A DNA stretch of 64,000 nucleotides, taken from positions 1-64,000 of the IMG/VR virus record IMGVR_UViG_3300013137_000015. One strand, given 5' to 3'. Numbering within the stretch: position 1 is the first letter of the stretch; the number at the start of each line of letters is the position of its first letter. The DNA comes from a virus. The notes beneath the pieces were generated by a model that saw nothing but the letters and a program-made list of their open reading frames with translations, had not been told where the DNA came from and ran no database searches. Position numbers and translations under genes: made by a program. Shown here piece after piece: positions 31,495-34,234 of the stretch.

Positions 31495-31626
31495 TCAAAT
31501 TTCTTTCTCAATATAACCAAAGCAAGTACCAACTAACCAATTTAATTTTAGATATGTTGAATTCCATTTTGCTCTAATTGAATCTGAATTTTCTGTTATT
31601 AATTTATATGTCTTTAAATTTTTCAC
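31495..31626 (-). CDS. 43-aa leader-bearing mini-ORF with GTG start (not in track)
   Basis: MKNLKTYKLITE; GTGA overlap with the upstream stop; stop abuts the next ATG. Confidence 0.55.
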   Translation of the reverse strand: MKNLKTYKLITENSDSIRAKWNSTYLKLNWLVGTCFGYIEKEI

Positions 31627-32840
31627 TTACCAAGTATCTTTTTTAATTGATTCAAAGTATCTTTTGTATTTTTGTGTAATATTCCAATACCACCTTTTTC
31701 TCTCCATGGTTTTATATTTTTTTCAAGATCATCTATTAATATTGTTGTTGGTGTAGCATATGATTCTTTTCTAAAGAATAAATTTACTTTTATATCACCT
31801 AATTTTCTTTTACACCATATCTTCTTACCAATTCCTGATAATTTATCTCTTGAAGGTTTTGATAAAATTTCAGTACCTTCAAATTCTTTAATATAATTCC
31901 ACAATTCTTTACCATCTGGCATCCAAGACATTTTTGACCAAAAATCTAACCCCAATGCTTTAATCTCTGACCAAAATTCCTTAGAACCACAAACTTCTTC
32001 AAATTCCCATCCAGTTTTAAAATCTGTATCGTTTTCTTTATTAAATTCTTTTAAAAATTTTCTATAAACATCACCATCAAAATCAGTCAATACCCCATCC
32101 AGGTCACAGTATATCTTGAAGTTAATCTTTTCTTCATTTATAAAATTTTTAAATTTTGTTTCAAGACTTTCTTGGTATTTGGCTTGTCTCCAAGCTAATG
32201 GATTTTTCGAATCCCATGCAGTCATGTCAGACCCCCAACCTTTACCCCAACCTTTCTTTTTAAGTTCTTGTTTTTCTTTCCAACTCATTAAATGAATGAT
32301 TTTCATTTCTTCTTCACTTCTTTTTTTAGAACCTCTATAATTTGATAGTGGTACTAAAAAAGGTTTAATTTTATCATTCAAACCTTGACACCAATAACCT
32401 TCATTCCAATCCGCATCATCTGGATCTGTCAAATCTTTATCAATAACTTCAATTAACCACTCAGGTTGTGAGAAATCTAATTCTTTTAATAAAGGATATT
32501 TTTTATTAAATGCTTCTTCAATATCATCTAAAATTTGTTGCATTTCAGATGGTTGTGGATATGTCCAAAAAGAAATAACTTGTTGTTCATACCAAAATCT
32601 TCCTAAAAATTTATATGCAGCGTCTCTGTCCAAGACGTGGTCTTCGTCTACAAACATTTCATATTCATCGTCTGTCAACATTTGAATATGTGTTTTACAC
32701 AATCCAACTCTCATTTCATCACCTCTATAACCAAAAGCGACTGCATCATCTTTTTGCCAATTGACATAAATTGATCTTGGTTCTTTATATGTAATAATAT
32801 CTGGATTTTCAAAAAGTTTATATTTCAATATTTTGTTCAT
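31623..32840 (-). CDS. Leader + shared carrier domain + HAD 5'(3')-nucleotidase (NT5C-like)
   Basis: IYCDLDGVLTDF; LIDD..NIKPWREKGGIGILH. Confidence 0.75.
   Translation of the reverse strand: MNKILKYKLFENPDIITYKEPRSIYVNWQKDDAVAFGYRGDEMRVGLCKTHIQMLTDDEYEMFVDEDHVLDRDAAYKFLGRFWYEQQVISFWTYPQPSEMQQILDDIEEAFNKKYPLLKELDFSQPEWLIEVIDKDLTDPDDADWNEGYWCQGLNDKIKPFLVPLSNYRGSKKRSEEEMKIIHLMSWKEKQELKKKGWGKGWGSDMTAWDSKNPLAWRQAKYQESLETKFKNFINEEKINFKIYCDLDGVLTDFDGDVYRKFLKEFNKENDTDFKTGWEFEEVCGSKEFWSEIKALGLDFWSKMSWMPDGKELWNYIKEFEGTEILSKPSRDKLSGIGKKIWCKRKLGDIKVNLFFRKESYATPTTILIDDLEKNIKPWREKGGIGILHKNTKDTLNQLKKILGK
32167..32297 (-). repeat. Copy 1 of a roughly 130-bp coding repeat; copy 2 at 33546-33676
   Basis: Both copies encode IHLxSWxEKQExKKKGWGKGWGSDMTAWDSKNPLAWRQAKYQES. 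Confidence 0.9.
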
Positions 32841-34234
32841 TATTGGGTATATATTTTATCATAAAAACGATTTACAACATTTATCAGTCTACCAAAATCG
32901 CCATTATTTCTTAATTTTTTGAAAACTAAATTTTCAAGTGAAAATTCACCTCCCCTTGATAATCCTTCTTTTCTTTCATTGTGTATTTTCTTTTTATATT
33001 CAGATGCAAAAAGATAATTCTTATGTGATACTTCTGATGTACTTGTTATATTACTTATTTCTTCTAATTTATCAATACCGCTTTTATATGTGAGGTATTT
33101 AAAATCAACTTCTTCTTCATTTATTTGTGGCTTATTCCAATCAGGTTTTGATATCCATTTATTACTTAACAGAGAATAAATACCTTGTGAAACATTTGGG
33201 TCGTTAATATCTTGAATATATAATTCAACATCATGACCTTTAATTCTTATATTATGTTTTAAATTCCATAATGCTCTTTCATTATCAACTATTTTCTTTC
33301 CTAATTCTACATTTGAATTTATTTTAGAAACATCAACTAAGATATGAACATCCAAATCTGAAAATTCATTCCAATTATAATTTGCTAATGAACCAGTTAA
33401 AATAATATCAATGATAGAAGATTGATATCCAAAACCAGTATAAAACTCTGTTGCTATTGTAACTAATTTTTGTCTAATTCTTTCATTAAAAATTTCATCA
33501 GACCAGAATTTAGGATTTAATTCTTTTTTATAATAAAATTGTGCGCTTTCTTGGTATTTAGCTTGTCTCCAAGCCAATGGATTTTTCGAATCCCATGCGG
33601 TCATATCGGAACCCCAACCTTTGCCCCAGCCTTTCTTTTTCATTTCTTGTTTTTCTGCCCAAGATAGTAAATGGATTGCTCTTTCTTCTTCTGAAAATTG
33701 TTCTGAACCCATATAATCTTTTATCTTAATAAGTTTAGAATTATCAGAATCGCCCCAATATTTATAATCATTTTCTATTTGTTTTCCTGCTTCGTTTGTA
33801 ACAATTTCAATCCACCAATCATCTGTTATTTCAATATCAATGTTTTTCTTTTTAAATGCTTTCATAATATCATTTAAAACTTTCCATAATTTTGTATAAT
33901 CTTTTGGAAAATCCCAAAAAGTAATGTATTTGTTGTCTTTCCATAATCTTCCTGAATATTTTAAATCCTCTCTCTCTAAACCATAATCTGTTAATTCTCC
34001 ATGACACATTCTAGCATATGAAGATACCAATATTTTATCTTTATAATATCCAAATATATATGCATCATTTTCATAATAATCTATTTCAACGCCATCTTTT
34101 TTTATCAAATGATCTGGACTTTCATTTAATACACTTTCTTGATTGGAACTCCATTCATTGATCTTTTCGTCATCTTCTATTTTGCAGATAGCGTTTAGAT
34201 TTTCAAATAGTTTATATTTATTTAGATGTTTCAT
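32840..34234 (-). CDS. Leader + shared carrier domain + Pol-beta-type nucleotidyltransferase
   Basis: ILTGSLANYNWNEFSDLDVHILVD; VELYIQD; GEFSLENLVFKKLR. Confidence 0.75.
   Translation of the reverse strand: MKHLNKYKLFENLNAICKIEDDEKINEWSSNQESVLNESPDHLIKKDGVEIDYYENDAYIFGYYKDKILVSSYARMCHGELTDYGLEREDLKYSGRLWKDNKYITFWDFPKDYTKLWKVLNDIMKAFKKKNIDIEITDDWWIEIVTNEAGKQIENDYKYWGDSDNSKLIKIKDYMGSEQFSEEERAIHLLSWAEKQEMKKKGWGKGWGSDMTAWDSKNPLAWRQAKYQESAQFYYKKELNPKFWSDEIFNERIRQKLVTIATEFYTGFGYQSSIIDIILTGSLANYNWNEFSDLDVHILVDVSKINSNVELGKKIVDNERALWNLKHNIRIKGHDVELYIQDINDPNVSQGIYSLLSNKWISKPDWNKPQINEEEVDFKYLTYKSGIDKLEEISNITSTSEVSHKNYLFASEYKKKIHNERKEGLSRGGEFSLENLVFKKLRNNGDFGRLINVVNRFYDKIYTQ

Follow-up and report, generated by a model that had tools for sequence, protein, structure and literature searches.

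A module with a near-invariant tail peptide precedes two adjacent enzymes in a phage genome fragment and may mark head cargo

Why should two adjacent phage genes place unrelated enzymes behind the same N-terminal domain and a nearly unchanging peptide? The question is raised by a nucleotidyltransferase (NTase) gene and a HAD phosphatase gene in a 64,000-nucleotide (nt) stretch of viral DNA, hereafter the window, which is the first 64 kb of the 72,002-bp IMG/VR virus record IMGVR_UViG_3300013137_000015 (CheckV completeness 10%). The G+C content of the window is ~26%. We found that the shared region is a unit of leader, core module and tail, that it belongs to a large protein family, and that this family has many fusion partners. 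The mechanism that we favour, tentatively, is a larger and modular variant of the capsid-targeting cargo of phage T4 and of polyvalent proteins. The parts of the two genes are listed below (aa, amino acids; ORF, open reading frame; pI, isoelectric point), with the evidence in brackets.

32840..34234, minus strand: gene for a 464-aa protein made of leader, module, tail and pol-beta nucleotidyltransferase (ORF; Pfam; PHROG)
34202..34234, minus strand: leader of the NTase protein, MKHLNKYKLFE, aa 1-11, with L-x-E at its end (sequence)
33674..34201, minus strand: module core of the NTase protein, aa 12-187; the leader is followed by a ~27-aa insertion (alignments, model, profile search)
33548..33673, minus strand: tail of the NTase protein (the earlier "linker"), aa 188-229, HLLSW...KYQE, basic, Trp-rich, pI 9.5
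32843..33547, minus strand: predicted NTase effector domain, aa 230-464, with the G-S ... D-L-D motif GSLANYNWNEFSDLDVH
31623..32840, minus strand: gene for a 405-aa protein made of leader, module, tail, second leader and NT5C-type HAD nucleotidase (ORF; Pfam; PHROG)
32808..32840, minus strand: leader of the HAD protein, MNKILKYKLFE, aa 1-11 (sequence)
32295..32807, minus strand: module core of the HAD protein, aa 12-182 (alignment, model)
32169..32294, minus strand: tail of the HAD protein, aa 183-224, HLMSW...KYQE, pI 9.7
32133..32168, minus strand: internal second leader of the HAD protein, SLETKFKNFINE, aa 225-236 (T4 capsid-targeting spacing)
31626..32132, minus strand: predicted HAD (NT5C) effector domain, with motif I DLDGV and a later IDD (Pfam; PHROG)

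Over their N-terminal ~230 aa, the NTase and HAD proteins are 38% identical (97 of 252 alignment columns, E 1e-32), and the elements FGY, H, GRxW, I(S/T)FW and WxIE all fall in conserved columns. The original prediction that both enzymes are built on one carrier domain was thus borne out, with Pfam and PHROG identifying the two enzymes. The NTase domain scores 22.4 bits against Pfam NTP_transf_2 (cut-off 21; aa 273-325), matches phrog_36119 at E 9.5e-44 (aa 232-460) and contains G-S ... D-x-D, which we take to be the pol-beta motif; a sequence search of the PDB gave no match at E<=1. The HAD domain scores 26.2 bits against Pfam NT5C (cut-off 24.8; aa 243-391), matches phrog_2643 at E 2.2e-22 and carries HAD motif I, D-x-D-G-V; its CDLDGVLTDF aligns weakly with the motif of mitochondrial deoxyribonucleotidase (E 0.04). 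By profile and motif, the effector domains are a predicted pol-beta nucleotidyltransferase and a predicted NT5C-type HAD 5'(3')-deoxyribonucleotidase. Between tail and HAD domain lies the second leader-like segment that had been noticed earlier, ETKFKNFINE (aa 227-236); the same arrangement is found in four relatives (P0012, P0013, P0015 and P0058).

The gene pair is not an assembly chimera. The carrier-NTase architecture recurs on other contigs (P0003, P0005, P0006), and an independent 97,967-bp contig carries a carrier-NTase gene (P0005) and a carrier-HAD gene (P0013) with consecutive locus tags; because the architecture recurs on independent contigs, chimerism is excluded. The carrier was also found with other effectors, as described below. 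The P0013 protein itself (291 aa) ends 72 aa past the tail, and within the HAD domain its sequence departs from that of the window protein; a frameshift or a truncation is possible.

The NTase and HAD proteins agree at 40 of the 43 positions that run from H188/H183 to S230/S225, the Ser that follows KYQE. This segment had been described as a near-invariant 44-aa linker. The near-invariance stands, but the segment is the C-terminal tail of the module and not a linker: several proteins stop 4-12 residues beyond it, and in the family at large natural C-termini are found 2-12 residues past the E-[SN] at the end of the tail. A 32-aa tail core, KKKGWGKGWGSDMTAWDSKNPLAWRQAKYQES, is identical in the two window proteins, and the corresponding DNA differs at 9 nt, all of them synonymous, over ~17 synonymous sites. 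If substitutions were random, the chance of all nine being silent would be ~2e-7. The same holds more widely. A 28-aa core, GWGKGWGSDMTAWDSKNPLAWRQAKYQE, occurs in six copies on three contigs (G000, L004, L006) as six different DNA strings, which differ at 1-10 of 84 nt, with every difference silent. Since the differences in the tail DNA are all silent, the tail peptide is under purifying selection at the protein level, as had been proposed from the two window copies. The tail protein is identical across paralogues and contigs whose module cores share only ~40% identity.

These data bear directly on the simplest alternative, in which the identical segment would be due to gene conversion in the recent past or to an element acting as RNA, and the shared domain would be an ordinary tandem duplication that implies no larger system. 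Some tail copies are indeed only 1-3 of 84 nt apart between contigs with unalignable flanks, and recombination acts there. However, the nine silent differences between the window copies, and the exclusively silent differences in the other pairs, largely refute this explanation. The folds of four copies of the tail DNA are not unusually stable (z -0.56 to -1.96, not significant), and a small hairpin that recurs in them is due to the A-W-R-Q-A codons. An ordinary duplication also fits poorly with a family of 1005 clusters that has many fusion partners. We therefore regard this alternative as very improbable.

The tail starts at the second conserved His of the module and is basic (median pI 9.8, n=116). 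Its consensus in the wider family is H-x-x-S-P-x-x-K-K ... G-[FWV]-G-S ... P-L-x-W-[RK]-Q ... x-E-[SN]; only a close subfamily has the strict form found in the window. Some units keep leader and tail without the core, or with only its last part (P0010 aa 1-54, P0005 aa ~270-315, P0003 aa 1-95, P0049 aa 1-50), and for this reason the tail seems to work independently of the core.

Selection on the peptide does not account for every property of its DNA. The tail DNA of the window NTase gene (33548..33673) differs from that of L004 module 1 (8395-8530) at 1 of 84 nt, and GC-rich codons of a kind seldom used in these AT-rich genomes are common to both. The block of near-identical DNA is ~135 nt long; identity collapses on either side, and the flanks cannot be aligned. 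The near-identity in some pairs suggests that the tail DNA is also an exchange site, or recombination joint, for modules and effectors.

How widespread is the unit? A profile search with 11 modules returned 1005 cluster representatives at E<=1e-3, 579 at E<=1e-10 and 132 at E<=1e-30, so that the family comprises no fewer than 1005 clusters at 50% identity; as many as 11 stretches were matched in a single protein, the 1906-aa P0031. A word-indexed search recovered 17 relatives of 291-769 aa, several with two or three complete tandem units. A hidden Markov model (HMM) counted 377 modules in 156 proteins; the partner and module counts given below rest on these 156 proteins, 40 of which were scanned against Pfam. 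The degenerate motif GR.W...K.ISFW.[YF]P, searched as DNA, matched 76 stretches in IMG/VR, spread over 71 contigs that reach 344 kb in length; at each of the 75 new loci the HMM confirmed modules, which lie in 113 ORFs of 1-6 modules each (G+C 0.22-0.38). Within the 72-kb record of the window, the only copies are those in the two genes described here.

The module is ~170 aa long. Its start has the consensus [KR]-[LI]-[NF]-E-[SN]-P-D, the core beginning at [SN]-P-D, and it contains a near-invariant H, G-R-x-W, K-x-I-S-F-W-x-Y-P, W-x-I-E and a second H. Across the 377 modules, R is conserved in 99%, G in 98%, FW in 94%, H in 91%, F in 90%, P in 84% and K in 81%; further conserved positions are the E-x-P-D start (E 81%), W/F, I-S-F-W, W-x-I-E, I-P, Y and the second H. 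The core is acidic (median pI 5.1, n=360). A complete unit consists of a disordered ~10-aa leader ending in L/I-x-E, the acidic alpha/beta module, and the basic, Trp/Lys/Gly-rich tail ending in x-E-[SN]. A unit may stand alone, form one of several abutting genes whose stop and start codons overlap, be fused in frame into an array of up to 11, or precede one of many enzyme domains that are unrelated to each other. Single-module genes abut on other contigs as they do in the window, and the arrays thus look like in-frame fusions of neighbouring genes, with the internal "leaders" being the apparently retained N-termini of the fused genes.

The module appears to be undescribed in the libraries that we searched; our literature searches covered capsid-targeting and polyvalent-protein terms and not the module itself. 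It has no Pfam or PHROG match. The AlphaFold model of the NTase protein has a mean pLDDT of 65.9, with residues 1-29 below 50; that of the HAD protein has a mean of 73.8, with 10-residue blocks at 75-96 over residues 11-130 and a pLDDT of 34 for residues 1-10. In both models the alpha/beta core is predicted with confidence and the tail with low confidence, while the leader is disordered. Foldseek gave no match at E<=1e-3 for the NTase-protein model against the PDB or for the HAD-protein model against BFVD, and an ESM Atlas search with the module gave no usable match. A VIA-align comparison with 48,161 PDB chains yielded best Z scores of 3.6 and 3.9, both to the same Stay-Green chain; these scores are within the noise, and a known fold is rejected for the present. 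A scan of GTDB genome contigs found 20 pattern stretches, none of which was confirmed as a module.

The enzymes joined to the module vary. Extra segments of at least 100 aa number 79, in 68 of the 156 proteins, and fall into 42 BLASTP clusters; some of them may be diverged modules that the HMM missed. The original prediction of a modular system with swappable partners agrees with these counts. Above the Pfam cut-off, the partners are WYL_2 (P0053), the head domain of PolyA_pol (P0075, E 1e-31), CTP_transf_like (P0047), GNAT (P0031, with 11 modules) and 2H/2_5_RNA_ligase2 (P0062). Matches below the cut-off are to PRTase (P0011), NTP_transf_2 (P0096), methyltransferases (P0051), Acb1 (P0143, P0062) and ART-PolyVal (P0155, 24.1 bits against a cut-off of 31.2). 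For the other 28 scanned proteins, Pfam gave either nothing at the thresholds applied or scattered matches, below the cut-off, to unrelated families.

The term carrier, used in the original prediction, was right insofar as the module is fused to swappable effectors. It is too narrow, however: 88 of the 156 proteins have no extra segment, and arrays reach 11 units, so the module has a role beyond that of a carrier. The two catalytic domains, for their part, are ordinary. The NTase is a typical member of phrog_36119, which includes NTases of T4-like cyanophages, Lak/Prevotella phages and huge phages of 634-735 kb, and shares 36-49% identity with ORFs in 45 records (Prevotella/Lak phages 15, Synechococcus 14, Maribacter 8, uncultured 5, Caulobacter 2, marine 1). 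These homologues are free-standing or otherwise fused, in contrast to the window protein, and the module was found in 0 of the 45. The NT5C domain is likewise an ordinary member of the 5'-3' deoxyribonucleotidases of phrog_2643.

What might the module do? One answer, and the main rival to the mechanism that we favour, is that it is a cytoplasmic ligand-binding domain, either a sponge for nucleotides or immune signals or a binder of RNA or tRNA, which gathers enzymes on a shared substrate. Arrays would then raise valency, and the leader would be a lineage-wide feature unrelated to the capsid. The conserved R (99%), H (91%), K (81%), S/T, E/D, second H and aromatics resemble a phosphate or base pocket, the tail is basic and Trp-rich, and among the partners nucleotide or RNA enzymes predominate (pol-beta NTases, the CCA/poly(A)-polymerase head, cytidylyltransferase-like, NT5C, PRTase, 2H/Acb1-like, and the Sm-like WYL_2). 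The arrays of up to 8 copies that consist of modules only (P0019) suit a multivalent binder, and the leader also occurs on ordinary enzymes. On the other hand, two Foldseek searches, Pfam and PHROGs gave no link in fold or sequence to a known sponge or RNA-binding domain (best Z 3.9), and the acidic core would be unusual in a nucleic-acid binder. A binding function also leaves unexplained the L/I-x-E boundaries and the T4-like spacing of the leaders described below, as well as the invariance of 28 tail residues across cores that are ~40% identical. Binding is the better explanation of the invariant polar residues and the module-only arrays, and the worse one of leader, boundaries and tail; we consider it possible but on the whole doubtful.

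The arrays, and the adjacent single-module genes with overlapping stop and start codons, also invite a different explanation, namely a self-associating scaffold, inner-body-like or assembled in the cytoplasm, which would unite the fused enzymes through contacts between modules or between tail and module, with no proteolysis. An acidic core paired with a basic tail fits such contacts, and giant-phage heads contain paralogous, processed internal proteins, as described in PMC5694885 and PMC9026906. However, a tail that bound its own core should be matched by co-variation of the core surface; the tail was observed to be invariant while the cores have diverged to ~40% identity. Self-association is therefore improbable in our estimation.

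We now turn to the leaders. Leaders of the form MK-x-[LIF]-x-x-[FY]-x-x-F-x-E occur across the record; a strict pattern finds them on 17% of ORFs, and visual inspection on ~29% (about 22 of 76). Of 76 ORF N-termini, 13 fit the strict pattern, against 6 of 341 internal Met positions (Fisher p 1e-6), and the leader is thus enriched at N-termini; a first, looser pattern, which matched 15% of internal windows, was replaced by this one. Examples of leader-bearing ORFs are:

36678, 38994, 40780, 48482, 49373 and 59728, plus strand
22889..23575 and 29371..30267, minus strand

The T4 capsid-targeting sequence (CTS) is MKTYQEFIAE (PMC8442874). According to PMC9026906, its residues 4 and 7 target and its residues 8 and 10 direct processing. 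T4-type leaders are N-terminal propeptides 10-19 aa long. The T4 protease gp21 is described as cleaving after L/I-x-E. In MKRFNNFINE, MKNYKNFIKE, MKKFYTFVNE and the internal ETKFKNFINE, an aromatic residue at position 4, F at 7, I or V at 8 and E at 10 are placed as in the T4 sequence; three window ORFs (36678, 38994, 40780) and the internal leader of the HAD protein have the exact T4 spacing. The N-terminal leaders of the NTase and HAD genes have Y at 7, L at 9 and E at 11 (KLFE), which is an L-x-E at a different offset. An E-[SNG] lies within 16 aa upstream at 104 of 142 module junctions. Similar leaders surround the module genes at loci L003, L004 and L006, and are also found in the phage genome LR756501 (735,411 bp).

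LR756501 enters the comparison through the tail sheath of the window, which is encoded by the following gene:

11346..15239, minus strand: tail sheath gene, 1297 aa, unusually long; only the last ~350 aa match sheath families

The C-terminal 358 aa of this sheath share 68% identity with the sheath of LR756501, and the same region is 54-56% identical to the sheaths of three uncultured phages of 634-642 kb. Genomes of these four sizes rank as the largest Mahaphage genomes, with Bacteroidetes as the predicted hosts (PMC7162821), and the window is therefore a fragment of a Mahaphage-like huge phage.

T4-type head genes occur in phages that bear the module. Among the five largest module-bearing contigs (33-80% complete), three encode a Gp23-type capsid protein above the Pfam cut-off; S77 was matched in three, and in two of these above the cut-off. 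Contig G005, which also bears the module, encodes a 202-aa S77 protease. LR756501, in which Pfam S77 stays below the cut-off, encodes a head maturation protease of 178 aa (phrog_207, E 3.4e-19). A second ORF of this genome, S77-like and with an open frame of 811 aa (647 aa in locus L012, 72497-75841), contains an 11-aa repeat with the core Y-x-E-Y-[IV]-A-E at least 12 times in tandem. The same repeats are present in the protease ORF of contig G002 (L121, 5500-10500), in which a module protein begins MKYLKTYKLFENPN and has the junction IYQES-ILSFGEYIKE-TPD. These ~800-aa S77-like ORFs look like fusions of a protease with a scaffold whose repeats resemble the T4 CTS. In the window, leaders terminate in F-[IV]-[NK]-E; the I-A-E of the repeats is the processing motif of the T4 sequence. 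The original prediction had allowed for cleavage at QE-S or NE-E, which is plausible because the L/I-x-E rule fits and because such proteases occur in module-bearing phages.

Taken together, leader, boundaries and head genes tentatively point to a T4-style system for loading cargo into the head, in which the leader and boundary motifs would be signals for targeting and processing. The leader would act like the T4 CTS; the S77 (gp21-type) head protease of the phage would cut at the L/I-x-E and x-E-[SN] boundaries; and the invariant tail would dock on a conserved partner in the head, which might be the DNA, the capsid protein or the scaffold. Both enzymes, nucleotidyltransferase and deoxyribonucleotidase, would be packaged and would reach the host along with the DNA, and the near-identical tail DNA would serve as the recombination joint at which modules and effectors are exchanged. 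The Pfam families of the partners overlap the polyvalent-protein set (ART, GNAT, pol-beta NTase, 2H, PRTase), which we count in favour of loading into the head. We lean towards this mechanism with something short of even confidence.

Several observations weigh against it. A three-residue motif alone is weak evidence. At the tail-end site, P3 is Y, T, S or K, and not L or I, in many members, and the Pro at P2' of the ESPD site may hinder cutting. The leader is also found on odd cargo, namely a SAM methyltransferase, a DeoC-type aldolase and an AAA-like protein. Two of the five large contigs (33% and 58% complete) have neither a Gp23 nor an S77 match, the 72-kb record (~10% of the genome) has no S77 match, nor did a gp23-type capsid protein turn up in it, and module genes lie 14-55 kb from head genes and are not adjacent to them. 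No cultured phage with the module was found: tblastn with the window module and the 8-module P0019 against 50,697 phage records gave no match. In LR756501, the closest complete relative, a profile search of the whole genome found 0 modules. Polar residues that hardly vary (H, R, K, S, E, H) would be expected of a ligand pocket no less than of a docking domain, and module-only arrays are left unexplained by a pure address tag.

The loading of cargo into heads has precedents with which the proposed system can be compared. In T4, the CTS on IPI-III and Alt, which is removed by gp21 (S77), is likewise a short N-terminal leader on unrelated proteins, and T4 also packages an enzyme, Alt, according to PMC9026906. 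Several window leaders and the internal HAD leader match the spacing of MKTYQEFIAE, and the L/I-x-E boundaries and the presence of a gp23-type capsid protein and an S77 protease in module-bearing phages add to the likeness. In contrast to T4, however, the leader here precedes a ~170-aa module and an invariant ~42-aa tail, both lacking in T4; units are chained up to 11, and the leader occurs on 17-29% of ORFs.

Polyvalent proteins (Iyer et al. 2017) are predicted (PMC5512222) to be delivered with the DNA and to be processed by a peptidase. Like the proteins described here, they join disparate enzymes in multi-domain phage proteins, and PMC5512222 gives a repertoire that is shared with the module partners: ART, GNAT, pol-beta NTase, 2H phosphoesterase, PRTase and nucleotide metabolism. 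They differ in that the module matches no Pfam family, polyvalent-protein domains included, and in that most module proteins have one enzyme or none together with repeats of a single module. Each window protein combines one catalytic domain with the module and does not have the several disparate activities per polypeptide of a polyvalent protein; relatives with GNAT, 2H or PolyA_pol beside modules usually have one enzyme only. No zincin-like peptidase or MuF was seen, and the two window proteins gave no Pfam match to a polyvalent domain, be it an LPD, MuF, a zincin-like peptidase or ART-PolyVal.

The third comparison is with the phiKZ-like giants (phiKZ, 201phi2-1, SPN3US). Their paralogous packaged head proteins have conserved N-terminal propeptides that are cut after Glu, at short motifs, by an S77-type protease, and many of their proteins are packaged (PMC5694885, PMC9026906). 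Their inner-body and ejection families show no sequence similarity to the module proteins. The phiKZ-like motif, moreover, is S/A/G-x-E, and the propeptides are long and not tandem modules with an invariant tail.

A parallel to the tail peptide is found in LR756501. Its NTase homologue (49% identity, 544 aa, leader MLKYNSFIKEE) has an unrelated N-terminal region with three DPYGEEEW motifs. The six-residue core of DPYGEE(x)W occurs 109 times in LR756501, against 0 occurrences of the reversed control; the sites are at protein C-termini, just after KKFKxFE leaders, and between domains (loci L011, L013, L089-L118). One copy is at the C-terminus of the 178-aa head maturation protease, so that in LR756501 the punctuation peptide is shared with the head protease. 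The motif does not occur in the 72-kb record of the window. Given its abundance in the one and its absence from the other, different lineages seem to punctuate many of their proteins, each with its own short peptide.

A more general form of loading into the head would be a combinatorial cargo system of Mahaphage-kind phages. The module and its Trp/Lys-rich docking peptide, bounded by sites for the head protease, would be a universal adaptor that loads dozens of interchangeable enzymes for co-injection; the DNA of the peptide would be the joint for shuffling, and sister lineages would use other punctuation peptides (DPYGEExW). We regard this generalization as rather unlikely. If true, it could make the injected proteomes of uncultured giant phages readable directly from sequence.

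The module is a large family without a name, a known fold or a cultured host system, and it combines polyprotein-like arrays with enzymes of counter-defence type. If leader and boundary motifs are signals for head loading and processing, they would amount to a sequence rule that predicts which enzymes the largest known phages inject, and to a natural, portable packaging tag that far exceeds the T4 sequence in size and modularity. Were the module to bind nucleotides or RNA instead, it would represent a binding fold that is new, abundant and linked to the nucleotide chemistry of phages. Either way, the NTase and HAD genes open the way to a system that is widespread and unstudied.

The neighbourhood of the two genes comprises the following features:

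34234..35133, minus strand: upstream 299-aa ORF, with a TAATG overlap with the NTase gene
30445..31494, minus strand: downstream 349-aa ORF, with the doubled leader MKYLQTYNKNMKYIKTYEKY
29371..30267, minus strand: last minus-strand gene of the block
29328..29354, strand not assigned: terminator-like hairpin with a 12-bp stem and T-rich tails on both strands, just beyond 29371..30267

TAATG stop/start overlaps chain three minus-strand ORFs, of 299, 464 and 405 aa in this order, and two further ORFs follow. The ORFs at 34234..35133 and 30445..31494 had been labelled WYL-like and ART-like, respectively. Neither label was upheld: the first ORF has no Pfam or PHROG match and no BLASTP or hhalign link to the WYL_2 fusion proteins, and the second has no Pfam or PHROG match, no BLASTP or hhalign link to the ART-PolyVal fusion and no named family above the threshold in the Atlas. 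These searches used single-sequence queries at Pfam E<=0.1 and PHROG E<=0.01, and were therefore of low sensitivity; the Atlas was consulted for 30445..31494 only. A scan for sigma-70 promoters over 29000-36000 was uninformative (55 sites, against 49.8 +/- 6.9 in shuffles). The doubled leader of the 30445..31494 ORF reads MKYLQTYNKN followed by MKYIKTYEKY. The Atlas entry for this protein begins at residue 11, and the second Met may therefore be the true start.

Three further ORFs lie elsewhere in the window. Directly downstream of the sheath gene is a homing-endonuclease-like ORF (9575..11272, minus strand; phrog_3339, E 2.3e-116). A nucleotidyltransferase of the RlaP family (RNA repair pathway pol-beta) is encoded at 21278..22462 on the plus strand (Pfam E 3.2e-19; phrog_388); it is the second NTase of the window and is free of a fused module. 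The ORF at 18817..21060, plus strand, encodes a ClpB/Hsp100-like double AAA+ ATPase of the phage (AAA_2 E 5.7e-62, ClpB_D2-small, phrog_4871).

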